Assembly (NCBI GenBank): GCA_003614675.1
Contig: ML002348.1
Location: 1 to 39,644, forward strand
DNA: 39,644 nt
Direction: 5' to 3'
DNA from: Dimargaris cristalligena
Lineage: Eukaryota
Below the pieces are notes generated by a model. It was not told where the DNA came from and did no database searches. It was given only the letters and a program-made list of their open reading frames with translations. The position numbers were made by a program, and so were the translations under genes. This document shows positions 9,851 to 34,784 of the stretch, in pieces (the stretch's first letter is position 1; each line of letters begins with the position of its first letter).

Positions 9851-12800
9851 TCACTCGTAACTTTCCGAGTCCGTTGACACACTCGTACTGGACACCTCAT
9901 CGACGCCGGAATCAAGACCGGTTTGCAGAGCCGTCGCAGCCTCACGGGCGGCCGCCGCTGCTGCATTGTAATAATGCGTGGTCAGCTCCTGGTCCTCCCG
10001 CAGCTGGGTCATCCAGAGTTGGAAATAAACCCCCTCGGAGTCAGTAAGCAATTCAGCATGCGAGCCACGTTCGACGATATGTCCGTCCTTGATAACCAGG
10101 ATGAGGTCAGCGTGGATGACGGTAGACAGTCGGTGGGCGACAATTAGAGTGGTGCGGTTTTGGGTCATGGTTTGCAGCGCCGACTGAATCTTGAGCTCCG
10201 TGTAGGTATCCAGGGCCGACGTGGCTTCGTCCAATAAAACCACCCGCGGGTTCTTGAGGATCGTACGAGCAATGGCAATCCGCTGGCGCTCACCCCCGCT
10301 TAGACGGGCTCCGCGCTCACCCACCCGCGTCTCGTAGCCCTCCGGCAGGGAAATGATCTTGTGGTGGATCTGGGCCGACCGAGCTGATTCCTCGATTTCG
10401 GAAAGGCTAACCGCGTCAAAACCCGCGCCCGCCTGACCGTACTGGATATTAAACCGGATGGTATCGTTGAAGAGGGTGGTGTCTTGGGGTACCATGCCTA
10501 AGTGGCTACGGAGGCGCCTGGGACTCAGATCCCGAATATTGCGACCATCCAGCGTAATCTCACCGGCGGTGGGTTCGTAGAACCGGTAGAGCAGTTTCAG
10601 AATGGTACTCTTGCCGCTGCCTGAGGGTCCAACTAGGGCCACGGTAGATCCGGCGGGTACCTTGAACGACACGTCCTTGAGGATGGGGACGTGGTCATTA
10701 TAGTAGAAGGTGACATGTCGGAACTCAATGTCGCCCTGTACTTGGTCCGAAAGGCCCCCGGGGGTTAACGTGGAGTGTGTCGTCAGGTGGTTGAAAGTGG
10801 TGATGGGCAGGTTAGGGTACGCTTGCGTAGGTGGGAAGCAGCCGACTGGCCCCAACTGGGCGTGGCTATCGTCCAGATCAATCAGGCAAGCGGTGGCAGT
10901 ATTCTCCCCTTCGGCCGACCCTTCACGCTCCGATGGATCATCACCCCTGGCATCGGTGCACTCGGGGGCCTCTGCCAGTACCTCCAGCATCCGCTCCATA
11001 TCCACAAAGTTCTTCTGAATCAGCCGGTAGGAGTTGCCAAACCAGTTCAGGGGGGCGTACATTTGGTTGAGATAGGCCAGATACAGGACAAAGTCGCCCA
11101 CTGTCATGTCGCCACTCATAATACGCCGGGTGCACAGCAAACAGCCAATGAGCATTCCAATCTGCATGGAGCAGTTCTGGACCGACCGGAGCACGTTGAG
11201 TGATACCACATTCATCCACTCCGCTGACTGGTACTTTTGCATCGCTTCGGCATACACCCGCACCTCGAAGACCTCCGCATTATTGTGCTTGACCGTCTCG
11301 TGGTTAAGTAGCGAATCAACGGCCTTGGCTTCCATTTCGTTGTCGTAGTTGTTGCTCCGACGACGGTGCTGTTTATGCCACTCGGTTAGGATTATGGTGC
11401 TGGCGATGTAGGCGGTCATGGTCAGAATCACAATACCCCCGAAATAGAGGTCAAAATGAAAGCTGAAGTAGAAGCACGCAATGGTGATGTCGGCCACTGT
11501 GGGTAGAATTTTGAACAGGATGCTGGACAGGAGGGACTCGATACTGGATACACCGCGGTCCTGGATGCGGAGAATTTCACCTGTCTTGCGGTTGGTGTGG
11601 AACTCGAGCGGGAGGCTATGGAGATGGGTGAAAATCCGTACCGCCACGGCCCGGGTGGTAAACTGGGACACCGGTGTCCAGCAGAAGTCATGCACCGTCT
11701 GAAGCAGCCCAATGTCCCCTTGGAGTACCTTCAGTAGGACAAAGGCCACTACATCGGCGGAGACCAGAGTATGGTCAGTGATATTATTGACCACGTTTTT
11801 ATACTGAGTAGGGACCAGTATATTGACCCACCGGCCGAGGGCCAGCATGGCGAAACAGAGGGCGATGTAAATGTAATTAGAGCGCGGCAGTTGGTGAGGG
11901 AACAGGAACGGGGCCAGTTGGCTCAATCGGGCGAAAAAGTCGGAGAGCGACATGGGTGGAATATCGGGCTTAAACTTGACGGTGGGGTTACGAATCTGGG
12001 CTTCGGAAGCAAAGCTAGTGGAGGGAGGACCGCCGCCGGATGTAACGGAGGTATGGTCATCGGCCGATGAGGAGGCGGACGACGTAGGGGCACACTCCCG
12101 GTCTATAAGGGTGGCTTCGAATTCACGCTGGTGCCGGCGGCATACTCGCTGGTAGGCAAGATCCGACAGGAGCAGCGTAGTTAGCACCACAGTCTGGACG
12201 AAAAATAGACCCGTCACGAATAGAGAGTTGGGGATGACGGCAAAGGCCGGAGCTAGGCCGAACAGGGCTACCCCGGTGACCGAAGTGTACACAACCGAAG
12301 TGCACCATGATAGGACGTGGTACGCCGACTCCTGGCCCAGAAGCGAAACGGGTACCGAGTGGGGACTTGGCCGAAACAAGATAAGGAACCAAACCCAAGC
12401 GAATACCCGCATCACCTGGCTGGTCAAGATCAGGTTCAAGATACCTCGCTCTGTTTCAAGCGTGTACTTATCCTGGTATATGGCTACCAGAAACAGCGTA
12501 ATGATCAAGTCGAAGTAAAGAACCGCGAGCTTGATGGCTCCGCGTATGCGCCGGACGGCACTGTTATTGGGCGCTTGGTGAAAATACGAATAACCGCCAT
12601 TAGGACCTATATGTATGCGATCGCGGGCGGATTATGGGGGAAGGGAAGTCGCCGATGACAATGGAGTAATACCAATTATGGAAAGAAGTATATATACATA
12701 TATAGCCAAGGGATAAATCAATGTGACAATATAAAAATATGGTTAGTATTAGCAATGAAGCGTGCGAGGCCGGATGGGTGTATTCACTGGGCAAAGAGCG

Positions 12801-15213
12801 GAATCTGGAAGTTCAGCCCAACACATATCGAATCACCAGCGGCTGTGAACCAAGCACTGCACTTGGATCTGGAAGAAAAAATAATAATAGTTTCAAGCGT
12901 GAATTGAAGAACAGAGAAGGACACCTAAGATGAATGAGTGAACGGCACCCGATTGATAGTCGGAAGACTCATCTGAAAGCGTAGCCTAAATAATGGGGTC
13001 TGTTGGAAAAACAATCAACGGGGCCCACCAAAAAGAGAACACGACATGCTCCCACATTAATAATTTGGGGATAGTCCATTATAAGCCAAGCCATTGATGT
13101 ATTCACTGCAAAAAAACCAGGTGATTGTAATGGCCCAACTGGGATGGAGGTGTGGTGCAACTGGGATGGAGGTGCGGTGCAAATCCCCAACGTGGGAAAA
13201 TCAATGAACAGTAGCGCACCGGGGTTTAAGGTTTAACCAGGAGGTAGGTAATAATATTAAACTTAGTGTGGCTTTGCGCAGTAGTGGCAGTGGCTCACCA
13301 GTCCCAAAATGTAGTAATGAAGTCAAGGTTTTCTCCAACAGCCATGTTTGGTTCTGGAATAAAACATACTGGCAGAGCACTAGATAGGAAACCAGCTATT
13401 AATGGTGAAGGATGGAAAGCAGAAAAGTACGGTGAAGGTAGAAGCGACGCAGCCGGGTTTGCACCCCATGCGCCATATTGGGAATAGACCAAATAAGTGA
13501 AGTAAGTATCCAGCAGCCCAACTCAATCTAATCCAATCCACTTCATTTTCGATTGAGAACATTGGAACGACTGGGAGGGGAGGAAAGAGAGAAGGGGGAG
13601 GGAGAACGATACGTTAGGATTGCCTCTCCCAACTGGCCACAGAAAAGAATCAACCTGAAACACAAAAGAACCATAATATGCCCCAGTGGACCAGCTTCAC
13701 ATAATCCCCACGCTATCACACATTTTCTCTCTCTATCTCTCTACCTGAATGGCTGTAATTCGCCTACGTAAGTCACAAAAGTGACTTTCATATGGCAATG
13801 GGCACACTCAGTGTAGGAAACAAGCCAGAAGGCGGATGATGGGCGTGGTAGGGGGGAAGAGGAAGCGCTCCAATGAGACATACACTGCACTAGAAGGGCA
13901 CCGTTTAGTCAAGAATGGAAACATCTATACAACGTATATATAGGGAGGACTAGGCTGGGCATATGGGAAAATGCTGGGAGGGACGAAATGATACACAGCA
14001 ATAGACAATCCTTTAGGGAACAGAGACCACAGCTTGGCATTTGAAACAGCTGTAGGTGAGTTTAGGCCCAGGCTTCCAGGTGCTACTGGTACGCATAAAC
14101 CCTCAACTCTCCGACCAGCTCGAATAAATCACAGGCCAGTCCCTAACTCCCAAAGAAAGTATTGCAGGCGAGTGGAAGTGATCACTTGCTGCTGCGCTCC
14201 CATCAGCCAATAACGACAAAAAAAATGATAAGGATCAAAAAAATAAATAGAAAGGTACACGATGGGAGGTGTATATTGGCAAAATCATCCGTGGGGACCC
14301 TGTCACAAAGTAGTCAGCTTGGCCAAAATCGCCACATCAATGCGGGAAGGAAATGTTTGGGGGAACATAATGGCACCGAGTTGCTCCTCCCCCTACTTGA
14401 CATACCCGCCCCCCCCGCTTTCTGAAAAAGAAAAAAAAGCCCCCCCACCTTCGTGTGTGGCTGCGGTGGGGACAGAGGTGTAGTGTACCGAAGTGGGTCT
14501 ACCGAATTTAGAAATGACGGAGTGCTGCAGCCGCAAGCAGCGGGCAACTGGTGCACAGCCATCTCATGCCGAGCCAGGTCAATACACACCAACTGCATGT
14601 TAGGTGGGCCAAAATAGAAACAGGCCGGAAGTATGGCGGTAAAACACTCCGCTAATAGTAGGGAATGCCACATGCAAAAAAAGTAGACGTCCACCTTTTA
14701 CTGATGGGCCAGGATATCCGGAAAGAATATAGAGAGAGATGGGTGGAAGAAAGAATAATGGGCAAGTTGTACAAAACCAACTAATGGTAGCCTCCATTGA
14801 ACACGTACTTCGGAAGGGGGAAATAAAGAAATCAAGCAACTAAGCGCGTTGGTATTCATTGGCGGCCGGACTTCTTTGGATCAATCCAAGCTTGAAACTA
14901 GAATATTAAATCATTACTTACCATAGGGAGCGATGGGGTTCGTGGCAACTGAATTATTATTGCCGAAAAATGAATAGTACACCGCACCCGAATGATTGGC
15001 AGCGGGCAGAACTGTGTAACCACATCGGGTGGCGTAGGAAGCCCGCCTTGATTGTAGCAGGCGGCGGGATCCACGTATGAGACTAATGACCAAATCAAAG
15101 GCGATAAGTACAGAAGGCAGAAGTAGATACACGATCAGGGCGTCACGATGCATATCCATGGTACCCAGGCGGTCGAAAAATGTATGCCAGGTTGTTATCG
15201 ATGGCAAGGTCAT
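9851..15213 (-). CDS. HMT1: Heavy-metal tolerance half ABC transporter (HMT1/ABCB6 type), complement(join(9851..12606,14922..15213)), ~1015 aa
   Basis: TMD motifs RKTGEILRIQDRG and DSLLNHETVK; Walker A GPSGSGKS, signature LSGGE, Walker B VVLLDE. An extra hydrophobic N-terminal domain favours HMT1/ABCB6 over ATM1. Exon 1 (MTLPSITTW...IAPY G|GTAAGT, phase 1) joins in frame to acceptor CATATAG|GTCCT at 12606, with a perfect TACTAAC at 12742-12748. Exon 1 assignment is less certain than the main exon. Confidence 0.88.
13136..13182. repeat. 22-bp tandem duplication inside the HMT1 intron
   Basis: CAACTGGGATGGAGGTG(T/C)GGTG twice, followed by CAA. Confidence 0.85.
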
Positions 15214-18200
15214 GCTGGTCAATCGGTGATTAATGAACGAGGGGAAGGGGAGAGAGGTGATAATGAAATATTATGGCAGGTGCAGAAAGATAAGTGGCGA
15301 ATGATAGAGAGAGAAAGGTAGCCGAGGGCTGGGTTCAATGCCACAATATAGTCAAGGTAAATTATCTGGGAGGAGGTTTAAGCTGAACAAGAGTGGCGGG
15401 GTCGAGTAGGTAGGTGGGTAAGATAAATGAGGGGAGGGAGAAGCCGGGTTAATATATGCAGCAGTAATGAGGAGGAGGGGGAGTTGAATAGCTGAGTTAT
15501 GGGGGAGGAGAGTTGACTATATCAATGTATTAGGTTGATGGCCATAGTATGAATGTGAGAGAGGGGCTAGGGCGGGGGATTTGGAATATTATAATGCACG
15601 AGTGGGCGCGGCGATGCGGAAAAATCGATGGAACGGGTATATATATACATATGGGGGATGGGGGTGCAATGAGGAAGAATTTATATATGAGGCAGAGATT
15701 TAGGGAAGTAAGTATGACAGTGCGTGTCAGAGATATATATATGGTCTCCATGGTGATAGGGTCAGCCCGAGTCCGATGATCAATGGAGGTGGCTACGGTG
15801 AAGCAGCGGCCCGGTCCCTAATTGGGAGATTTGATACACCTAAGTTGTGTAAACCATATCTAGGAATATTCATAGTGTGGCTCCATCCACAGTAGCCCTT
15901 GTATACCCGCCACAGACTATATCGCATACTACCAGACACCATACAGCTGCACAGCAGCCAAACTGCAAGTGGTAATAATGGTGGGGGGAAAAGTAAGGAG
16001 AGCAAGCGTAATACTAAGAATGAGAGGGGTGGGAGAGATCCAGACCGAGAGAAAAAAGAGGACGGGGGTGGGCGTGTTTCGGATCGGATACATAGTTGGG
16101 GGTAAAGTCCCGCACTCTGCCTTGAAACTACAGCAGGGGGGGGGGGTTGGGCGAAAGTAGTGGTGGTGGGTGCGTTTCATCAACTCCATATACCAGTGGG
16201 AATCCAGTTGAAACGCAGCACACCTGGTCCAATATACGGCCTATTTTTGTCAAGTGGTGTTACCCTCGTCCTTTTTTTTACTCACCCCCGTTCTCCACCC
16301 CCTTACCGTTCCCGACCAATATAAAGTAGCAATGAGGTGGCTGTATATAAATATTGTATCCAAATAAAAGTGCCCCACGCTTCCGTAGCCCAAGTTAGAC
16401 TTGGCCGCAACTAACCCAGCCAAGTCCAGTATAGCTCTGGCCCAAGGGGCATTCGCATTCCATAATACTACGTAGGACGGACAATGCAGGAGCGGATCGT
16501 GCTGCTTCAATGTCAAAGGCACCCCCGGCAGATGGCACTGGGTGAGCCGCAGAAGCAATAAATGAGAATGGGATTGGGCGACTGATACCGAGAGGGGTGT
16601 GGCGGATAGTGGAGCTGGGCCATCCATTTGGATGCAGCTTAAGTTGGCCTATGGTGGTGCAGTGTCGTGGGATACAAGGTGGAACATGTACTTACGGAAT
16701 GTCACAGTAGGCCAAGCGCCGCGGCTTTCAAGCGAACTAGGGAAGGGAAAGGTGGTGGAGGTGAATGTTTCGCTGGCAGCTGGGCTAGGGGGGGGAGAGC
16801 GGGGGGGGGGGGGGGTTGCACGAAATGGAGCCAAGGAAGCGAATGGGGTCGCCAATGGCTAACGCTTGTCACGACCTCTACTTGGACATGTGAAAGTCGG
16901 GGAATGGCAGTCAGAAAAAGGGTCAGGCGAACCAACCTGGGCGGTGGGGAACTCTTTAGATAGGGAAATGGAATATGAAGTGTATGGCTATGAGTATAGG
17001 TATGGTCGGATAGAAACAAGCCAGTGTTCGGACTTGCACAACCGACCCTATATATCTACTCCCTCCGTATCTATCAAGGCCGTGTATTACTTTGATACCA
17101 TTTCGGGTTGGCTGGGTTAGCAGCTCGGGGAGGGGAGCGGCAGTGCCACGCTGCTGATACTGATGTTGATACTGCCATCGCCTCCGCCATTTTCCCGCTC
17201 CGTATCTCCGGGAATGGGGATAAGATTTATCATTTCTGAATTGCAGTGTGGCACAGGATGTGGCTATGGCGGGACGAAACCAGCTTAATGGATTTCTTAC
17301 CTAAGAATAAAAAAAGTATGGATGAGTGGGCACGTGTTGTTGGTAATTAAATGGTGCCAAGTGATCAAATTGTATTGGGGGTGGGTGCGGAGTCTAAAAT
17401 AATCTTAGTCGGAGGTATTTGGGGAGCTACGATGCACGTATAATAAATTCGGGTATATTATATTGAAAAGTGGAGAAGAGGTGTGATGGAATGAGGGTGG
17501 TCTGTGTGTAGGTTAGTAAATAATGAGTGCACTGATTTTATAGCCCCAGAGAAACGGCGAGCCGACTTGTATACACTCTGATCAGGGGCGGATGAGACAC
17601 ATCCATGGTTGATTAGTTAATAAAAGGCCCGCGGGGCCCAGGCTATATTTCAATAAGGGCGGACAGGGGCTCTCGATTTTGCCACTGGGGTTTGGCCATA
17701 CAAGGAGCCGCGCAACTCCTTCTCCATAGTTCACTCCTATGGAGCGTTACGGGAGTGACAATGCGATCCACCGATGGTCCAAATCACCCACCTGTCCCTG
17801 GGCGCAAGAAGGCCGGTGACGGACGGAGCCGCTCCACCAAGGGGGGGATCCAATTCTACTTACATTCAAAAAGTCTCGGGACCGTAGGGCTATTCCCAGG
17901 CTATAAGTACCTGCCTTTGCCCTTTATATTTTTTCCAACACGGATAGTGCTTATTGATAGATACGTCCCAGTAAGTTTACTAGGCGCATATACCGAATAC
18001 TACGGAGTGGGGGTATAACGAAACCTGTGATACGATTAATAACGAGCCCGTGGTAGCCCGCGTGACCTGGGTAGGTTTCCGGAAAACAAGGACGGGGACC
18101 AAGTGGTAACTCTGCCGAGTTGAAGAAGTCACAAGCTCAGTAGGGCTGTGGGTATAGGTGTGGGTGTGTGAACGGGTCGATTCCTGGAGGATCCGATGGT

Positions 18201-19998
18201 CTATATTGTACAAGTGGAAATATCGAAGGGTTGAGGGATACTTGAATGTATAGATGAATGTAAGTCAATGTCGCTCTCAAGCTCTGTGTATCGAATAAAT
18301 AAATAATAGAGAAAATGAAAATTAGAATATGGGTGTGGAATCGAGAGAGGGGAAACAGTGGTATATGCCGAAAAGATTAAATTACTACTAGCAAATTGGG
18401 CGACGTTGGATAATCGGGTAGATTATTACCTTAAAAATTAAAGTCGAGTGGCAACCGATGGGTCCAGGTACGGAATGTGAGAGCTTATTTATACCCTATC
18501 AAACAAATGGACCATATCCACCACCACTGGCCGTGGATTAGCCCCCAAATACTGGACAGGGGTGGATGGAGTTAATAATGAGTGATCTTATTACCCACTT
18601 GTTTCCATTCTCCTACTGCGTCGGCCGATAGTTTGGGGCCCGTCCCGCTCCGCCAACAGGGTATATATTAAATCTACCCTCATTAGGGAGTCGATTAAAT
18701 CACCCCAACAATTTCAAAATGGTAATAAAGAAGGGGGGTAAACAAACGAGGATTCCGCTCAAACCAGGCATTCGACTCGGCACATCTAAGTATCCAGTCA
18801 TTATTATATTTCCTTGAAAAGAACGTGATTTGTGAAACAAGCTGCACAGTGAAGGGGATGTCATGCAGCTGAAAAACGGTCTGAAATTCAAGTAGAGTTT
18901 CAGCCAATGTAAAAGTGTAAGAGTATTTAATTTAGTGGACGACATTACCGAAGATCCGATGGTGAAGTGTTAACCCCCCCTCCCTCCTTCTCACCCCTCC
19001 CGTTTTGCACTTTGACTGCCTCGCTGTTGGGTTATACTGGGTGGCTATTAAGGAGGCATCCGAATGATGATCATGGCGGTGATGCCATTGACAGTGGGAG
19101 ACCGATGTTGAATGTCCTTGGTGCGGTTTAACTAGCGATAGAGGTAGGGTGCAGAGTGGAATGAGAGTACATGCCAGTTAGTTTGGGTGCAGCCTGACTG
19201 GTCAGCTCATGCCTCCCCTTAATGCACTGTCATCCCAAATGTTTCAGGGTTTGTCGGCCACACTTGGGACCTTTAACCCGGATAGTATGCTATATGAAAC
19301 AAATGGCGTATCAATTCCCGGGTACGGTTAGTGTAGTTGCACTCGGACTGGCTTAGGGGAGATACTATCTAACAGTAGTCGTGCATAATGAAGTGTAATC
19401 GGTATAGTTCACTCTCCCCCCAGGCCACCCACGACCCCTGACGAGTGGGATTATAGACTATCTTCATTTCCTCTAACCACTCATCGTAGAGCATGCACCA
19501 GCCGGAACACAATCAGTTCGGTAGAATGGGCCATTTGGTGAGTGGACGATGTTAATGGTGGCGGCGGCGGTGATGCTGAGACACGGGAACCCGAGTATGT
19601 ACGGAATGGAATCTACAGCCGGTAGTAGTTTGCTATTATGATTTGCCACTACCTACTTCGTTGGGTTATTATTATCTGCGCTTTACGATGGTTCGCTTTC
19701 ACTCTTGAGCAATGGGGGTATTGCGAGTGTTTCGGTATAACGTACCAATCCGTGGCAGGCGGATAAAACAAAATGCCAAGTAAATATGCGGATCAGTCGA
19801 GCTATAGACTGATCAAATAAAAGAAGCTTTGAACGGTCCGTTGGCGTGACGAAAATAGACAAATGGGGTTAAATCCCACCCATGACATGGACGGATCAAG
19901 AGGAAAAGTATCAGATTTCCGAAAAGGCAGCCGAAAGGGGTGGTTATACCCTTTGGTACCAGCTGGTAGGCTATATGCGGTGGAGGCGTGGCCGTTGT

Positions 19999-20043
19999 GC
20001 ATACATGGTCAAAACTGCATACATGGTTGAAACCGCATATATG
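19999..20043. repeat. Degenerate 18-bp tandem repeat (~2.5 copies)
   Basis: GCATACATGGTCAAAACT / GCATACATGGTTGAAACC / GCATATATG. Confidence 0.7.
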
Positions 20044-21530
20044 CACTATTTTTTTTTTGAAAGAAATTGAATCACCACCTTTAAACAGCGGAGGACCATC
20101 TCATCCTCTTCTATCCCCAACATGACGCTATTCGCTTTTCTCTTTTACTTCGCATTTGCGTATTTATTACTACGGAATTTAAGATGTTTCATCTGTGCGC
20201 GCAGAGTATCCTCTCGTATAATCTGCCTCATTCAAAGTCACACGCACACATTCTCTGACTGATAGGGCGGTGTTTGAAAAATAGTCGTTTTATTGATCAC
20301 CACTCGAATAGATATCTTATTCTTATAGACGGGGCTACTGGCGTACATCTACATCGCCTTCCCTACTACCAGTGTATTGTTTTGTTTATCCAGCCCAAGC
20401 CCCTCTCCACTCTCATCTATTTGCAGGTCTACCTATTTTAGAACAATCTTTGCGACTGTAGGTAAGAAATCCAAACATCAAAGGGATAATCGACAGATAA
20501 ACAAAGGTTTGGGGCTCTCTAGTTTCGGCGATTCACAACCCGACAAAGATGATCGCCAATTGAATCGGCGAGCGATTTGGAGGACAGGGTCGTCATGTTT
20601 CATCTATTATGGGAATATGGTGGGGGTTACAAAGGATAGGGGGGTCCAGACCTGCATAGTGGTGATGTTTCATCAGTTGTGTACATAACCCCCTGCGTTG
20701 CTTTATCTATTCCCTTTTCTCCCACTTGGCATTATGTAATTCCTAGTCCGACTCTAAATAGTGGACTCTGTGGCACCTACTGTATTTCACTAGGCTTGGA
20801 CACTGACCCGGATATCCTCCCTACGCTAGTCTAATACTTTCGGGCACTGATCTATATGTGACTGGTTCCTTACAAGGTACGCCTACATCACCCCTATTCC
20901 CCGGGAATATTTTAAGCATCGTCACCTGTTTCGTTTCATTTATTGCAATTGGCACTCTCCTCCCCACCATTCAAGAAAATCAAAAACGAAGGTTTGTGAA
21001 TAATTGGTGCAGTGAAACGTCGACACTATGGGCTGTGGAAAATTTCTCTAGATGTTTACTAAAGGGTGGGAGCTACTGCTAACCGCAAAGTGGTTTCAAT
21101 ACCACCTAAATACCAAAATAAGCAGGGAAAACCATCACCGACCTTGGTAAGTCCATTGTGCACAAATCTACCCACGCCTCATTTTATTGGGGGGGGGTTT
21201 GAGGTTTAATGCTGGGCCTGGGTAGAGAAGGTTTCAGGAAACTTGGTTGATATTTCCCACTCTAGGAAATCGACAGTGCTGAGCCGTTCAGTCCCATTAG
21301 TCCTGACGTAATCTCGGGTGCTTGAAAGCGCCCACCAGTCATTCATTCTACATAGAAACTGCCGACCAAGTGGGTTTCACCACGGCTGCGGAATCGACCC
21401 GCACTTGGGTATTGGCTGAAGGCCACACTCAGTCCGCCATTAGCTGCGGGGAATCTATTTCCGTTTTGTTCATTTCTTGTCCTTCATCAATATATTTTTC
21501 GTTATTTTATTTTTGCATTAGACTTTCGAA

Positions 21531-23001
21531 ATGGCGAAGAAATTCAAGGGTGAAAACAGTAAAGGTAGGTTGCCGGCGTATTTATGCGTGTGTTCACATT
21601 ACTCTTAGCCCACTAGGCCTGGGCATTCGGGCCATTGGCGACCTGGCTTGAACTAACGTTCTTATAATTCTAGTCGCTAGGCTCATTCGGCCAGACCGAG
21701 GTATAATCTCCCGACGGGGTCTACGCCCACTATCGTTGACGATACCCTCGAAACGAGTTGGCTGTCCTATCGACTCAATCGGTATATCGCCGTGCCTTTT
21801 GTTTCTACCAGTACTGACTATTTTTCTCAATATATATATATATATTTATGTGGACCGTGTTACAGTTTCGGCGGCCAAGGAGAAAAAGGCCGTTGCCCAG
21901 GCCGAGAAGGATAATAAGAAACGGGTTGAGCAGGAACGGAAGGAGAGCGCTACTTGGGCGGTTGGATCTAAGAATACGAGTAAGAAGGAGCAAGAGGAAG
22001 CCAAGCGGGTAGGTTCAATTGTTATATATATCTCGGATAATGAGCTGTTATAATGGTCCCTTGCGAGTGACAAATGGGTTTCGGCTGGCCCGACCAGGCT
22101 CTTCAACGAGAGCCAGAGTCCGGGGCTTTCACTGGCGACTGATGTCTTATAGAATAGTGCCATCTTATACTTTATTTTTTTCTATTAAAATGCCAAATTT
22201 AGTTGGAGAAACTGGCCCGTAAGAATGAAGCGGCTGAACTCCTTAAACTGGAAGAGAAGCAGATAACCAAGAGCAAACCACCGTCTAAGCCTGCCTCGTT
22301 GAAGCCCGTAACCGGTGCCGCGGTAAGTCTTTCAATATATGTTCTTTTAATGTGATTTATTTTGAGCTGCCCTTCCTATTTGGATATACTTTGATTAAGG
22401 CCTGTGGTAACGTCACCCCCTCCAACACACAAAATCATGGGGTATACCGACTGAATGACTCACATAATACATTGTCTTTGAATACTTGTATACCGCCTCT
22501 CTATAGAAAATCGCTATCAAGAAAACCGCCAAGGTGGAGAACTTCCAAAAGGAAATGCCCAAACCGGTGGCTTCGTACTCGGCTAGTAACATCAACGACG
22601 CCCTAGACCTCCTTTCCATTGTCAATTCGTCTGACCCCACCGCTGCTGAGACCTTGACCGAAGATCAGGATGTCTCCCAGTCATCTCGGCCGCAATCCCC
22701 GTCGACAAGTAAGCCCGGGAAATCAGTTGCCTCCCAAATCCAGGAAATCGACCGCCACCCCGAACGGCGTCACAAGGCTGCCTACGCGGCCTACGAAGCC
22801 CGTGAACTACCTATCCTCAAGGAGGAGTACAAGGGCCTGCGTCTTAACCAGCTTAAACAGGTCATGTGGAAGAATTGGCAAAAGTCACCCGAGAACCCCT
22901 TCAACCAGGTTCATTTGGCGTACAATGCCTCACGGAACGAAGCCACGGATGTGGTGCAGGATCAGCGCTCGCGTATTGAGGACCGGTTACGAACCGACTA
23001 G
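21531..23001 (+). CDS. CCDC124: CCDC124/Oxs1/Lso2-family ribosome-associated coiled-coil protein, join(21531..21564,21866..22008,22203..22322,22507..23001), 263 aa
   Basis: N-terminus MAKKFKGENSKV..AKEKKA; C-terminal ASNINDALDLL, DRHPERRHKAAY, LRLNQLKQVMWKNWQKSPENPFNQ. All three introns are GT-AG and phase-consistent. Confidence 0.92.
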
Positions 23002-23629
23002 TTGAGTCTCACTAGCCTCCCCCGTTAGTATACGTTTATGAACATAATTGTCATTTTTCTGTACCCATCTTCATACCATTTGAATTGATTCTTTTTGGTA
23101 CGGCAGATGTCTCTTACGGGAGGTGCCCGTGATGCTGAAGCACTATTTCGTAATTGATCATGCGAGTATAAGGGGGTATCTTTATTTCTTCGATTTACAG
23201 TTTGCCAGAAAACTAAGTAAACAAATGTCACGTACCCGTGTTTGTGACTAAAAATAGAACTGAAGGGAGCTAAGTAGAGGGGGGGGTTGAAAGAATGAGT
23301 TATCATCAAAAGGTATTTAAAAGCAGTGGGGCAGTAAAAGAGGTAGGTTGCCGAGTACGTAGTAGCAGTTAGATGGATGGGGGAGGATTATCCAACTGTA
23401 AAAATAGAGTGACTGGAAATCAAACTAGGCGACAAAGACGGAAATGACGTAAAAAAGGGGGAAAATAGGGAGGGGGAAGTAATGAATATTTCATTGCAAT
23501 AATGGTTATTATGGCGTGCTTGAATCACCGGTCCCATGGCCTAAAACTAAGGCATTCCTATGTCAACAAGACTCGCGCGGGGAGGAGGGGGAGGGAGAGG
23601 GGTACCACCACTTGGGCGATATGGCTGGC

Positions 23630-25822
23630 TTAATCAACCTGAATACGCATGTCCAGTTCGCCGAATTCGTTGAAGAAGGCCTATACAATACAACAATAGA
23701 GAGGAAGCGAGAGTAGAATGGGAGTATACCAAGGGGGTTCATTAAAAATATATAAATATATAGATATTATAATTACGCGTTAGTTAGTTTGTGGAGAGAG
23801 AGATGTATATGTGTGTTGAGGATGGCCACGAGGTTATCCATAACCAAATGGGGAAGAAAACACCCACAGTATCCACAAGGCGGACATATGCAAAGCACCA
23901 CCACCCTCCTCCTCCCACTCTCTCCTTCACCCCAAAGTCCGCTAGGACGCGGCGCAATTGTGTATACGGTCAGCCGTTCCAGCCGCTGTTGAACATTTAA
24001 TTCACACAATCGTGGATGGTGGTCGTGACCATATATATCACACTGGTCCCAAACAACAACCAGGTAATAAAGGGAAGGGGAAGGAGGAAGAATAATCTAG
24101 CCTAACTTAAGCATCGTCAATCTAAAAAAGGCGACTTACCGTGAACAGCGCAATAGCGTGACCCACATCATCGGCCCCCGCCATTTCCCGAATACTGTGC
24201 ATGGCCAACTGGGGACAACCGACGTCAATCGTCCGCAGACCCAATTTGGCACTCAAAATGGGGCCGATGGTCGACCCGCAGGACGAGTCATTACGGACCA
24301 CGAATTCCTGGAGGCGGATGGTGTGTTTATCGGCCAGGGCCTTGAGCACCAGGGACGTCGGGGCGGTGGTGGCGTAGCGCTGGTTGGCGTTGACCTTGAT
24401 CACGATGCCGTTGTGCATGACCGGTCGGTGCCGGGCCTCGTGCCGGTCTACGTAATTGGGGTGGACGGCGTGGGCCATGTCGGCGCTGATGAGGAAACTG
24501 GCGTGGATGGACTGCTCGAACGCCAGGGCATCGGAGGCCGGTAGGAGGTGGGAGGGCGCTGCGGTATTAGTGGCGGGATTGGAAGTGGCCGGGAACGTGT
24601 GGAAGGATTGCAGACGACGCAGGGTGGACTCCAACATGGCCGAATCGGCGCCGTAGGCCGATTGGGAACCGATTTCTTCGTTATCGAAGAGGGCAATCAG
24701 GCGGATTTGGGTGTCCTGGGCCAGGGTAGGTTGGGGACCAGAACCGGAGCTGGTACGCAGCGGGTCAGAATCGGCGGAATTAATGAGGGATTCCAGGGCG
24801 GTATAGGACATCATCAGATTATCCAGTCGGGGCGAATAAATGAATTCTTCGTAAATACCGCCCAAAGCGGCCGGTTGGGTATCGTAGAGGCAAAGTTCAA
24901 AATCCCGGATCTGCTGTACATCGACCTGCAGCTCATCGGCCAGTAACTGCAGGAGTTCCGGGTGGTGGTTCTTGGCCGTGTGACCATCATTAGCAATATC
25001 CTTGGCCATTGGCGGCGGCAGTGATGGTGACGAGGATGACGGCAAGGGGGAGGAGGAGGAGGTCAGACCTGCCCCAGGGGCATTACCACCATGGGAAGGA
25101 CGGCGGGTTTCCATGGCCTCGGATTCACTCTCGCTGGTGTCCGCGGTTTGGCGGGCCGCCGAGGGGGATTTGGGGGAAGCAGCAGTCCCGGAGGGATTAT
25201 TGAATCGTTTGGCAATGGTGGCCAAAATCGGGGTGAGGTGGGTCTCTTTATTGAAGGTAAACCCGTCGTTGACGGACCGATCGAGGTGGATAGCCAAGTT
25301 AGGGATACGCAGGATAGGGCGGTCGATGCGGACCAATCGGTTCGAGAAGGACGTTCCGTTTCCCTCAGCATTGTCGGCCACCATCACGCGACCGGCCAGA
25401 CTCAGGTCCCGGTCGAACCAAGTATGCCACAGTCCCCCGCCGTAGCACTGAACGCCCACCTGCAAATAGCCGGCGCGGTCCAGTTTGGAGATGGGTTTCA
25501 ATTTGAGGCAGGGACTGTCGGTGTGGGCGGCCACAATGGACACTCCCTGGCCGGGGCGGAACTGACCCCCGACGGCAAACGCGACGATACTCGAGGCGTT
25601 ACGGGTGAAGAAGTACTTGCCGTTGGGCTCGAGGCTCCAGGCCTGACGTTCTTTGAGTTCCTGGAATCCGTGGGCCACCAGGCGTTGGCGGCAGGCTTCG
25701 ACAGCGTGGAAGGGACTGGGCGAGGCATTGACAAAAGTCAAAAATTGATTGGCGTAGGCCCGGAGGGAGTTGACGTTGGCGGGTTTGCCCAGGGCGGCGA
25801 CGGAGGCTTTGGGAGGCAACAT
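23630..25822 (-). CDS. APE4: Aspartyl aminopeptidase (M18 family), complement(join(23630..23680,24140..25822)), ~577 aa; alternative upstream ATG at 26053
   Basis: SPSPFHAV, AHTDSP, YGGGLWHTWFDRDL, RLDN, DNEEIGS, SADMAHA, GSTIGP, MHSIRE. Donor ACG|GTAAGT at 24139, acceptor TATAG|GCC, terminal exon AFFNEFGELDMRIQVD*. Confidence 0.93.
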
Positions 25823-27042
25823 GGTAGTAGTATTGGTAGCGGTGGTATGGGTGGGGACGGTAGAGGGACGGCGGGGGGAGGGTGGAACCGTTAAATGCAC
25901 GGAAGGAATGCTATGAGTGCAAGGGCGGGGGGATATGCTCAGGAGGGAAAAGGGAGAGCCGCAAGGGGAGTCAGCCGAAGAAGGGGCCACGGAGCTGGGG
26001 GATGAGGCAACAGGAACGGCAGACGAAGGGGAACCAGGAGGCGACAGGGGCATTGAAAAGTGTCGACGGAGCGAACGAAGGACAGAAGGAATACGATAAG
26101 GATAAAGTTCAAGTGGAGGAGCGCACAAGCGGCACTTATATTCGACGGAGCAGCTGGCAGAAAAAGGGGGAAAGGAAGAGAAATGAGGTGAGGAAGAAGG
26201 AGACTGGCTCAATGACTGTCTATGGAACGAAAGTGAGGGGGATGGTGACTGTATAGCTATGGTCGGGGAGGATTGCGGTAAAGGAGCAAATGAAATCAGT
26301 TAGTTATTATGACTCCGAAAGTCAAATGATGAGGCGGGGTTGGCGATCCTGATAATTCCAAGGATCATACATAGAATATATATATATATATATATATATA
26401 AACGTATTGGACAGGCGGGTATAAATCACGCCGCTAAAGGAAAGTTGGTACAGTGCCGCAAGCTTGGTCGGTCGTGGGGAGCAGGCGCACGAGCAATAAT
26501 AATATTAATAACAGGGCCTGGAAGGTAGGGAATTGATATGTAGACTAATAGCCACGCTAAAAGCCGGGGCCGGTGCGCGATATTTATAACAATTAAGGAA
26601 CCCCAAGGCCAAGGTGCAGAGAGGCCCAAAGAATTAGCTGCCGCTCCCTATTCCCGCCACCTTTACCGAGCTGACTGCAGGTGGGAGGGAGACTGCCTTG
26701 AAACGAAATGGCTCGTATAACCAACCCCACCACTAACCATATAACTCAGATGAAGTAGAGTTTTATTTAAAGTAAATCTAAGGCAGGTGACCTTTTGGTC
26801 ATAATTTGCCATCCACAGGGAACATATTAAAGGATAGATGGCTCAAAAACCCTCAAAGGCTACACATATAACTCACTTACATTCCAATTGGCAAAGGCAC
26901 ACCTTACTCTACAATAGAAGGATGATGATTCCCGTTCCGAAGCCAAGCGAAAAAATTGCAATGGGTTGTGTGACATTACTATGGCCACCGGAGGGGTTTC
27001 TGAACCTACACTACTGGCATGGCCCAAGTTTCGAAACGAGTT

Positions 27043-28881: not shown

Positions 28882-29029
28882 ATATGGGTGAAGTTCAGCT
28901 TGGCTGTATAAGGGTTTAACTGATATGTGTATGGGATATTAGTAGGATGTTTATTTTCAACCAGTAGTACTTTATTTGCCTCATCAAATGGATTTTTCGT
29001 TACACAGCCTTGTTGAACTACTCCCATAT
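28882..29029 (-). mobile_element. MITE-like element, copy 2 (more diverged)
   Basis: ATATGGGTGAAGTTCAGCTTGGCTGTATAAGG ... ATGGATTTTTCGTTACACAGCCTTGTTGAACTACTCCCATAT is colinear with the reverse complement of 165-310. Confidence 0.82.
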
Positions 29030-32589: not shown

Positions 32590-34784
32590 TTATTTAGGTC
32601 GGAAACTATTATGCAGTCCAATGGTTTCGGGGGCCGATTCTATTGAGGGGCCGTTCTTGGCGGTGTCATTGCGCATGGTTTCCAGCTGCATCAGGTAGTC
32701 GGGGGTCACATCACCGGCGACGTACAGCCCGTCGAACACGGACGTATCGAACTGTTGGATGTCCGGGCGCAGTTTACGGCAGGCCTGAACGAGGTCGTCG
32801 AGGTCCTGGAAGATGACCTTATCGGCCCCGATGGCCAAGGCAATTTCGTCTTCGTTACGCTGGTGGCCCACCAGTTCGCGAGACGTGGGCATATCAATCC
32901 CATAGACGTTAGGGTACCGGATGGGCGGAGCACAGGACGCAAAGTATACTTTTTTAGCGCCGGCATCGCGGGCCATTTGCACAATCTCGCGCGAGGTGGT
33001 ACCACGCACGATGGAATCATCCACCAACAGCACGTTTTTATTCACGAACTCCAGGGCCATGGCGTTGAGTTTCCGGCGCACCGATTTACGGCGCAGTTCC
33101 TGGCCGGGCATGATGAACGTACGGCCAATGTAGCGGTTCTTGATAAAACCCTCGCGGAACAGCAGGTTGAGCTTGTACGACAGCTGCAGGGCCGATACGC
33201 GACTGGTGTCGGGCACGGGAATCACCACGTCAATGTCGTGGTCGGGGCCCAGGGCCCGGGTCACTTGGTCGGCCAGGGACTCGCCCATTTCCAGCCGGGA
33301 CTTGTACACGGAGATGCCGTCGATGATCGAGTCGGGTCGCGCGAAGTAGACGTATTCGAAGACGCAGGGCGAAAAGATCTGGTCGTCCACCAAACGACGG
33401 CGGCTCACGGAGCGTTTTGAAATGATGATGGCTTCGCCGGGAAGGACGTCGGTCACATCGGTGAATTCGAGCGAGTCCAGCACTACGCTTTCCGACGCGA
33501 ACATGTAGTCGTAGCCGCTTTCCCGCTTCCGGCGGCCGAACACTAAGGGGCGGATACCGTTGGGGTCCCGGAAGGCGATGAGTCCGAAACCGGCAATCAT
33601 ACCCACGCAGGCGTAGCCGCCCTGGCACTGCTTGAACAAATCCTTGATGGAATTGAAGATGTCCTCTTCGTTGACACTGGGGATTCGTAATAGTGGTGGA
33701 AAATGGGGAAGGCCGAAAGGGTAGTGGAGGGGTCAGAGTACAGTTAGAGACAAGTCCACGGTTGCAGAACGAATAGAGATCACTACATAAATATACATAT
33801 GGATGAAATTCAAACCAGCTGTATAAGGTTTTACATAATACGTGTATGGGCGAACATATGTGAGAATAGCTTTTAACCAGTAATATTGGCCTCGTCCAAT
33901 GGATTTTTCGTTATACAGCCTGAATGAACTTCTCCCATATGCATGCTCATCTAGAGCAGCTGGGAAAAGGCAAACTACTTACCGGAATTTGCCGGTGGTC
34001 TGCAGATTGTTGGCCAGAATATTTACCAACAACTCGCTGTCCGAGTCAGTGTTGATATGGCGATGGGCATCGTGATCCAAAAAATGGCGCAGTTCAGCGG
34101 CATTCACTAGATTGCCGTTGTGGGCCAGGACCAGGCCGTAGGGACTGTTGACGTAGAACGGCTGGGCTTCGGCGTGGGCGGAGCTGCCGGCAGTGGGGTA
34201 CCGCACTGTGGTGCAGTGATATGGTACATGGATACATGATGGTATATAGAAGGAGGTAAGCGAAGGAGTAGGATGCCAACTAGTGACCCGATCGACCGCT
34301 ATTGAATATAGAATGGGCGTCGTCAAAACAACTGATTCCAGCTAGAATTAGAACCACCCTTACGGAATCTATAAAGCTGAATTTAATACTTACCGTGTCC
34401 AACGCCCATGCAACCGACCAAGTTGCGCAGATGGTCCTCGTCGAAAATATCGCGGACAAGACCGTTGCCCTTGCACTGGTAGAGACGCCCCTTGGCACCG
34501 CAAGTAACGATACCAGCAGCATCCTAGAGTATGGGGTAAACAAAATCGAAATATTCGGAATAAAAAAGTCAGAAATGGGCCATAATGGTTCCAGCCGAGT
34601 TATACAGCCCCCCGGGCATAATTAGTTTGCGAAGTGGCGGTGGGAGCCTTGGACTGCAGGGGACCCAAAAAAACAAATGTGCACATACCTGGCCACGATG
34701 TTGCAGCATACCGAGACTTTCGAAAAGGTCGGAGCAGGCGAGCTCCTTGGTATTGGAGAGGATCAGGGCTGATATACCACACAT
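32590..34784 (-). CDS. ADE4: Amidophosphoribosyltransferase, complement(join(32590..33676,33983..34205,34394..34523,34689..34784)), 511 aa
   Basis: N-terminal MCGI (Ntn Cys), [52 protein letters not shown] motif [13 protein letters not shown]. Three phase-consistent GT-AG introns. Confidence 0.97.
33796..33941 (-). mobile_element. MITE-like element, copy 3, inside ADE4 intron 3
   Basis: 146 bp, CATATG...CATATG ends, roughly 85% identical (hand alignment) to the reverse complement of 165-310. Lies within intron 33677-33982. Confidence 0.88.

Follow-up and report, generated by a model that had tools for sequence, protein, structure and literature searches.

Introduction

The looping out of intron sequence reportedly has its yeast background in the classical RP51B/RPS17B experiments. 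The closest precedent is provided by the zipper stems of S. cerevisiae introns, RPS17B among them, which were probed in vivo according to the available part of that study (PMC12350175). In artificially enlarged mammalian introns, engineered 20-nt inverted repeats looped out the insert and stimulated splicing in vitro in HeLa extract (PMC1326234). Fungal introner-like elements (PMC3609843) and symmetrical (stw)introns (PMC8469720) are described, in the accessible sections of those reports, as having stable predicted structure or 45-55-nt terminal inverted repeats. In SOS splicing, as set out in the excerpt consulted of PMC12779559, the pairing of inverted transposon termini within a transcript lets the cell remove the insert.

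Among the fungi compared in the available part of PMC8042348, Dimargaris cristalligena ranks lowest in gene density and highest in intron length, so that a long intron in its HMT1 gene fits the species; the same portion of that study gives species median intron lengths of 29-197 bp, and the HMT1 intron, at 2.3 kb, lies far above them. Here we describe an inverted repeat within this intron, its placement relative to the splicing signals, and how it compares with the systems above.

The HMT1 stem compared with described systems

The window, by which we mean the whole stretch of 39,644 nucleotides analyzed here, carries HMT1 on its minus strand, and we confirmed that a 20-base inverted repeat truly brackets about 2 kb of the unusually large intron of HMT1, a metal-transporter gene. 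Read on the minus strand, 14900-14881 (the 5' arm, 14881..14900) is complementary to 12907-12888 (the 3' arm, 12888..12907) with 19 of 20 positions paired, arranged as 11 pairs, one U/C mismatch and 8 further pairs that include one G-U. At the DNA level the arms form an inverted repeat of 18/20 identity (90%) with 1973 nt separating them, the single informative difference between them being the G-U, and a repeat search returned this arm pair as the top inverted repeat in 12500-15000. RNAduplex gave -23.4 kcal/mol for the 20-mer arms and -25.0 kcal/mol for the 30-mer arms.

These readings agree exactly with the arm coordinates and pairing reported in an earlier note on this DNA, and its distances of ~20 nt to the donor and ~140 nt to TACTAAC were borne out as well. 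The donor GTAAGT begins at 14921, with 20 nt separating the donor G from the 5' arm, and the 3' arm lies 139 nt upstream of TACTAAC (12748-12742). The note had further described the stem as closing a 2.3-kb intron; that size holds for the intron as a whole (2315 nt), whereas the loop actually closed is 1973 nt. This looped-out interior (12908..14880, minus strand) is non-coding and matches no Rfam or Pfam family. The whole window yielded 0 matches against Rfam, and the interior is single-copy within the tested range, which covered the window and contigs from three DNA runs. It includes a 22-nt tandem repeat at 13131-13174 that is polymorphic between assemblies.

Set against the zipper-stem definition in the available part of PMC12350175, the locus has the helix (19 pairs, both arms being flanked by the donor at 14921 on one side and TACTAAC at 12748 on the other) and the distances (20 nt and 139 nt), whereas its total linker of 20 + 139 = 159 nt falls outside the 42-85 nt given there. 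By analogy, then, the HMT1 stem may work like a zipper stem, and by the published definition it is not a member of that class. Scale and setting differ too, as far as the same source describes them: yeast zipper stems close a few hundred nt and were probed in vivo in budding yeast, whereas the HMT1 stem closes ~2 kb in a zoopagomycete and is known from sequence and predicted folding (PMC12350175).

[quoted passage not shown] Introner-like elements and stwintrons resemble HMT1 in having repeats that draw the two ends of the intron toward each other and suggest a mobile origin, but in the accessible sections of those reports they form multi-copy families of ~100-200 nt whose repeats reach the splice sites (PMC3609843, PMC8469720). 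The HMT1 arms, unlike the repeats described there, lie inside the intron with the splice signals outside them, and we found no family. SOS splicing, in the excerpt consulted, is apparently independent of the spliceosome and produces diverse junctions other than GU-AG, with C. elegans and human cells as the only systems in which it is known, whereas canonical GT-AG signals outside the arms explain removal of the HMT1 intron (PMC12779559).

A two-exon model for HMT1

A protein database search identified the ORF at 9851-12631 as an ABC transporter of the ABCB6/Hmt1 type. Its best match, at 100% identity, was a 997-aa Dimargaris cristalligena protein that NCBI names Hmt1, encoded on a 48,949-nt contig of another assembly (P0001). 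When 15159-14922 was joined to 12606-9851 and translated, the product equalled the 997 aa of P0001, itself a predicted annotation, letter for letter. The coding part of exon 1 (14922..15159, minus strand), delimited by its ORF, its translation, P0001 identity and homology to D. verticillata, opens with the ATG at 15159-15157 as in P0001, has a further in-frame ATG at 15213-15211, and encodes the first transmembrane helix. Exon 2 (9851..12606, minus strand), placed by its ORF, domains and P0001 identity, encodes the rest of the N-terminal membrane domain, ABC_membrane, ABC_tran and the stop codon.

Homology extends across the proposed junction. Exon 1 aligned with the N-terminus of the D. verticillata orthologue (17/61 identities, E 3e-5), and both sides of the junction align with that protein. 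Within exon 2, the first in-frame ATG comes only after a transmembrane segment that is conserved in four Dimargaritales proteins; because conserved sequence precedes this ATG, an upstream coding exon is needed.

Between the exons, splice signals, frame continuity and P0001 identity delimit a GT-AG intron of 2315 nt in phase 1 (12607..14921, minus strand). The donor GTAAGT occupies 14921-14916, the acceptor AG 12608-12607, and a candidate branch point, read from the sequence as the consensus TACTAAC (12742..12748, minus strand), places the branch A at 12743. Counting AG dinucleotides across the intron revealed an AG-free zone (12607..12788, minus strand) that ends in the 3' splice site AG at 12608-12607; no other stretch of the intron goes as long without an AG as the 180 nt leading up to the acceptor, and the 135 nt from the branch A to the acceptor hold no AG where 5.7 are expected (97 AG in 2315 nt, Poisson P 0.0035). 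The intron thus has the features of a U2-type intron, namely GT-AG boundaries, donor and branch-point consensus and use of the first AG after the branch point, and once it is removed the reading frame is open, encoding a product with homology on both sides of the junction.

At the level of sequence and homology, the identity of the product with P0001, the homology of exon 1, the lack of an early ATG in exon 2 and the AG-free run uphold the two-exon model and the junction 14922/12606 that the earlier note had proposed. Its further suggestion that the stem gives this model independent support fell away, as an inverted repeat carries no information on splicing. It is well supported by these signals that the gap between the upstream ORF and the main HMT1 ORF represents a genuine 2315-nt spliceosomal intron with yeast-like signals.

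Predicted folding and a proposed loop-out

When the whole intron was folded together with 50 nt of each exon, the stem was present in the minimum free energy (MFE) structure, with its 19 pairs at probability 0.88-1.0, and it dominated the thermodynamic folding. The intron as a whole was slightly more stable than its shuffles (MFE -692.6 vs -668.1, sd 14.5). In local folds, which represent the transcript before the 3' arm has been transcribed, the 5' arm was about half paired (mean probability 0.48-0.56), and in the MFE structure the donor G was also covered by weak outer pairs.

In the MFE structure the donor G and the branch A are 58 steps apart, a path that local hairpins shorten and a figure that is not the zipper-stem measure published in the available part of PMC12350175. 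Across 20 shuffles with the signals kept, the donor-branch path had a median of 74.5 and a range of 2-136, and 6 of the 20 were as short or shorter. By this modeling, the closeness of donor and branch point in the MFE structure is not special to the real intron. The ends of any long RNA tend to lie close together in predicted folds, and the compactness of the shuffles agrees with this.

We propose that the arms pair in the pre-mRNA and that ~2 kb would thereby be looped out. The linker between donor and branch point would become ~160 nt instead of 2173 nt, and U1, BBP and U2 would then meet this giant intron much as they would the ~300-nt intron left after removal of 12888-14900. The repeat may either have evolved in place or represent the termini of whatever inserted the 2 kb. 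We put forward only tentatively, as the likeliest of the readings weighed here, that the arms pair, loop out ~2 kb and cause the intron to be handled like a 300-nt one, whatever their origin. We infer that the stem may form in vivo and may help splicing.

Were the stem to work in this way, it would extend the bridging of donor to branch point from the few-hundred-nt introns of budding yeast to a 2-kb span. The host would be an early-diverging, uncultured-style mycoparasite with unusually long introns, and the stem would constitute a natural counterpart to the engineered 20-nt repeats that rescue enlarged introns in vitro.

Insertion, chance and gene-model alternatives

Two rivals to the loop-out reading are serious. 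In the first, a ~2.0-kb non-autonomous DNA element, of which the arms are the inverted termini, inserted 21 nt past the donor of a former 302-nt intron, the pairing of the arms being an unselected by-product and splicing tolerating the insert for other reasons. We consider this account unlikely as it stands. Several observations favor it: inverted repeats of 18/20 identity lie at both ends, as in a DNA transposon or MITE, and deletion of 12888-14900 leaves a 302-nt intron, near the 306 nt of the ADE4-like intron elsewhere in the window. An insertion into a short intron would yield closeness to both donor and branch point automatically, and because a MITE insertion gives zipper-like geometry in just this way, placement statistics cannot separate a selected stem from insertion termini. 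The window also contains a MITE family of three copies with terminal repeats of ~31 nt, one copy lying within a short intron, and both HMT1 arms start with TA and are adjoined by AT-rich flanks, an arrangement compatible with a TA target duplication.

Several results speak against an insertion origin. At up to 3 mismatches, the 20-mer arm occurred in the window only at the two arms themselves, and the intron searched by BLAST against the window returned low-complexity matches only and no dispersed repeats. At 80% likeness, three DNA runs yielded only contigs tiling the HMT1 locus (6, 6 and 1 records, the independent run giving 1 of 261,543, under a filter that omits some records). The earlier note had named, as the case that would overturn its reading, arms that are transposon termini found elsewhere; no further copy of the element or of its termini appeared in the window or in contigs from the three DNA runs. 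A transposase remnant was likewise absent, with 0 of 16 intron ORFs reaching the Pfam cut-off. No unambiguous target-site duplication could be assigned, TA being palindromic and inseparable from the repeat and the 3-, 8- and 9-nt flanks differing. Finally, 18/20 terminal identity is more than one would expect an old element, decayed elsewhere, to retain without constraint.

One sub-threshold Pfam hit, C1-set in an intron ORF (E 0.0091, 16.8 bits against a cut-off of 21), was taken as noise. Metagenome contigs scanned with P0001 gave 11 pattern matches, none of them a relative. In the independent DNA run, a single 18,073-nt contig spans the stretch and differs from it at 9 sites within the intron, all of them outside the arms; these comprise 6 substitutions, a 22-nt deletion of one tandem-repeat copy and two 1-nt indels. 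The absence of differences in the arms is uninformative on constraint, because only ~0.15 would be expected in their 40 nt.

The second serious rival holds that a long intron under neutral evolution acquired the inverted repeat by chance, with the stem having neither a role nor a mobile-element origin. We scored ungapped helices at 3 for GC, 2 for AU, 1 for GU and -4 for a mismatch, on which scale the observed stem reaches 39. A helix as good appeared anywhere in the intron in 31 of 300 dinucleotide shuffles, which favors chance. The window likewise contained 71 helices of score at least 39 within 3 kb spacing (19 on the minus strand and 52 on the plus strand), many of them low-complexity and some with an arm in coding sequence, and the arm pair itself gave a BLAST E of 0.27. 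Duplex energies point the same way, with equal values for the 5' arm at unrelated sites: among minus-strand partners in the window for the 30-nt 5' arm region, the lowest energy was -25.4 near 2351, followed by -25.0 at the 3' arm and then -23.6, -22.7 and -22.6. The inverted repeat as such is ordinary, and its unusual feature is its position near both splicing signals.

It is this placement that weighs against chance. A helix as good with its 5' arm in the first 100 nt arose in 9 of 1000 shuffles, and requiring in addition that the 3' arm fall within the 400 nt ahead of the branch point reduced this to 0/1000 and 1/1000 in two runs; helices that equalled or exceeded the stem both in strength and in closeness to the two signals occurred in 2 of 5000 shuffles. 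Natural sequence gave a similar picture, in that 16 of 7496 same-length pseudo-introns, taken every 10 nt on both strands of the window, reached the score, all 16 holding the HMT1 stem itself, and none of the 7480 without that stem reached its score and placement. Both the shuffle and the pseudo-intron figures are optimistic, since the placement windows were set after the stem was seen. The stem of the earlier note was moreover the best case picked from a 39.6-kb window, a further point for chance, and by our own arithmetic the chance figure, corrected for the ~3-10 introns inspected, becomes roughly 0.004-0.06. We regard plain chance as unlikely.

RNAduplex applied to whole regions, the 100 nt after the donor against the 400 nt before the branch point, was rejected as a test, with 475 of 1000 shuffles as low as the observed -52.9 kcal/mol; because long interrupted duplexes accumulate and leave no discrimination, it was replaced by the ungapped-helix score. 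A 12-nt copy of the 3' arm core lies inside exon 2 (12453..12464, minus strand; 3 matches vs 0.13 expected). As an alternative, mutually exclusive partner of the 5' arm this copy was set aside, its duplex of -22.4 kcal/mol holding rank 5 among minus-strand sites in the window.

The weakest rival, in which the gene model is wrong (a different first exon, extra exons, or an upstream ORF that belongs to another transcript) and the stem is irrelevant to bridging donor and branch point, is very improbable: P0003, the 623-aa model on the window's own contig, leaves out exon 1 and corresponds to the two-exon product only from residue 298 onward, and position 14405 offers another in-phase donor with an open frame, but the two-exon product matches the independent annotation P0001, exon 1 aligns with D. 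verticillata where the rejected alternative first exon at 14406-14697 shows no similarity to the orthologue (best E 1.2), all four Dimargaritales proteins have conserved sequence upstream of the first exon-2 ATG, and canonical splice signals and the AG-free zone are present. The locus illustrates how first exons here come to escape gene callers, with P0003 lacking the whole N-terminal membrane domain.

Other introns in the window

Three long introns were modeled in the window, those of HMT1, an ADE4-like (amidophosphoribosyltransferase-like) gene and an M18 aminopeptidase. The ADE4-like intron, placed by modeled splice signals at 33982-33677 (306 nt), contains a 146-nt MITE at 33941-33796 that is recognized by its terminal repeats of ~31 nt; these repeats recur at ~165-310 and ~28884-29027, so that the window has three copies. 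Between the MITE termini and the splicing signals of the ADE4-like intron there are 41 nt on the donor side and 47 nt on the branch-point side, and the placed helix of this intron, which 0 of 1000 shuffles matched, is the MITE terminal repeat itself. In the M18 aminopeptidase 5' intron (~620 nt, donor 26880/26876, branch point ~26304), we found no helix joining donor and branch-point regions, with 969 of 1000 shuffles equalling it, and by this model that long intron would be spliced without such a helix. The structured-intron pattern of which the earlier note had taken HMT1 as the clearest example is accordingly not general in the window, with the M18 intron lacking a helix and the ADE4-like helix belonging to a MITE.

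The ADE4-like MITE and the HMT1 insert are alike in being inverted-repeat-bounded inserts in otherwise short introns, with termini near the donor and branch point that would pair. They differ in that the MITE is 146 nt long with ~31-nt repeats and three copies, whereas the HMT1 insert is 2013 nt long with 20-nt arms, is unrelated in sequence and has no other copy that we found; a direct comparison of the HMT1 arms with the MITE termini gave no sequence match.

A broader idea, which we regard as doubtful, is that Dimargaris introns grow by self-looping insertions, that is, by elements bounded by inverted repeats; pairing between the termini of such an element in the pre-mRNA would leave the spliceosome facing the short ancestral intron as before. 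The ADE4-like MITE and the HMT1 insert, with its termini kept and the rest decayed, would then represent two stages of this process, and retention of the arms would be selected. If true, self-looping insertions would provide a direct connection between the termini of mobile elements and zipper-stem function and would help explain kilobase introns in a fungus with strict yeast-like splice signals. The HMT1 stem and the ADE4-like MITE suggest a testable route by which inverted-repeat-bounded insertions may enlarge introns while leaving splicing intact.

HMT1 gene models and sequence differences within the intron

Closer inspection of P0003, the 623-aa gene model from the window's own contig (window 9851-12606), placed its first residue at residue 298 of the two-exon HMT1 product, and by eye two internal stretches of that product are also missing. 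The model is without the entire N-terminal membrane domain and looks mis-called. In the orthologues annotated in Tieghemiomyces parasiticus (P0002) and Dispira simplex (P0004), the starts fall at most about 25 residues from the equivalent of the exon 2 start, and the exon 1 equivalent is missing in both. Starts so near this point, lacking exon 1, hint that a hard-to-call intron occupies the position equivalent to the HMT1 intron in both genera.

Comparison of the window with the independent DNA run over 12400-15300 revealed nine differences, every one of which (9/9) is intronic. These data sets differ at a 22-nt tandem repeat and at G/C homopolymer runs (window 13131-13174 and 14408-14451), with the repeat present in two copies in the window versus one in the independent DNA run and the homopolymer runs of the HMT1 intron showing single-base differences between the DNA runs.

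At 12453-12464, within HMT1 exon 2, the core of the long-range intronic stem's 3' arm recurs as a 12-nt copy. This 12-mer has three matches in the window versus 0.13 expected, and the duplex of the exon 2 copy with the 5' arm is valued at -22.4 kcal/mol, although by energy this site does not stand out. The copy lies in the codons following the conserved DKYT motif.

Other introns, a repeated element and the ORF-poor region

The M18 aminopeptidase gene, on the minus strand, likely has a 5' intron of 620-632 nt (about 26249-26880). Its signals comprise GTAAGT/GTGAGT donors at 26880/26876, ACTAAC at 26304 and an acceptor at 26257 or 26249, both in-phase; pairing of the intron start with the region before the branch point, as in the HMT1 intron, is absent from this intron.

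For the amidophosphoribosyltransferase-like gene, the ORFs flanking a 306-nt intron (33677-33982, minus strand) divide the Pfam GATase_7 profile into 10-64 and 66-121. One copy of a palindromic, MITE-like element lies inside this intron. The element measures about 145 nt, has terminal inverted repeats of about 31 nt and occurs three times in the window, at about 165-310, at about 28884-29027 and at 33796-33941. The donor is 41 nt before the intronic copy and a CTCTAAC branch point 47 nt after it, and without this copy the intron would measure 160 nt. AT-rich, palindromic sequence flanks the element, which makes a target duplication indistinguishable from the repeat.

The top-scoring helices of the window come from G and C homopolymer runs in 15300-24000. 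Long runs of this kind lie, for example, near 16800 and 18970, and the region comprises about 8 kb without a long ORF, the sole exception being a Ccdc124-like ORF at 22507-23001.
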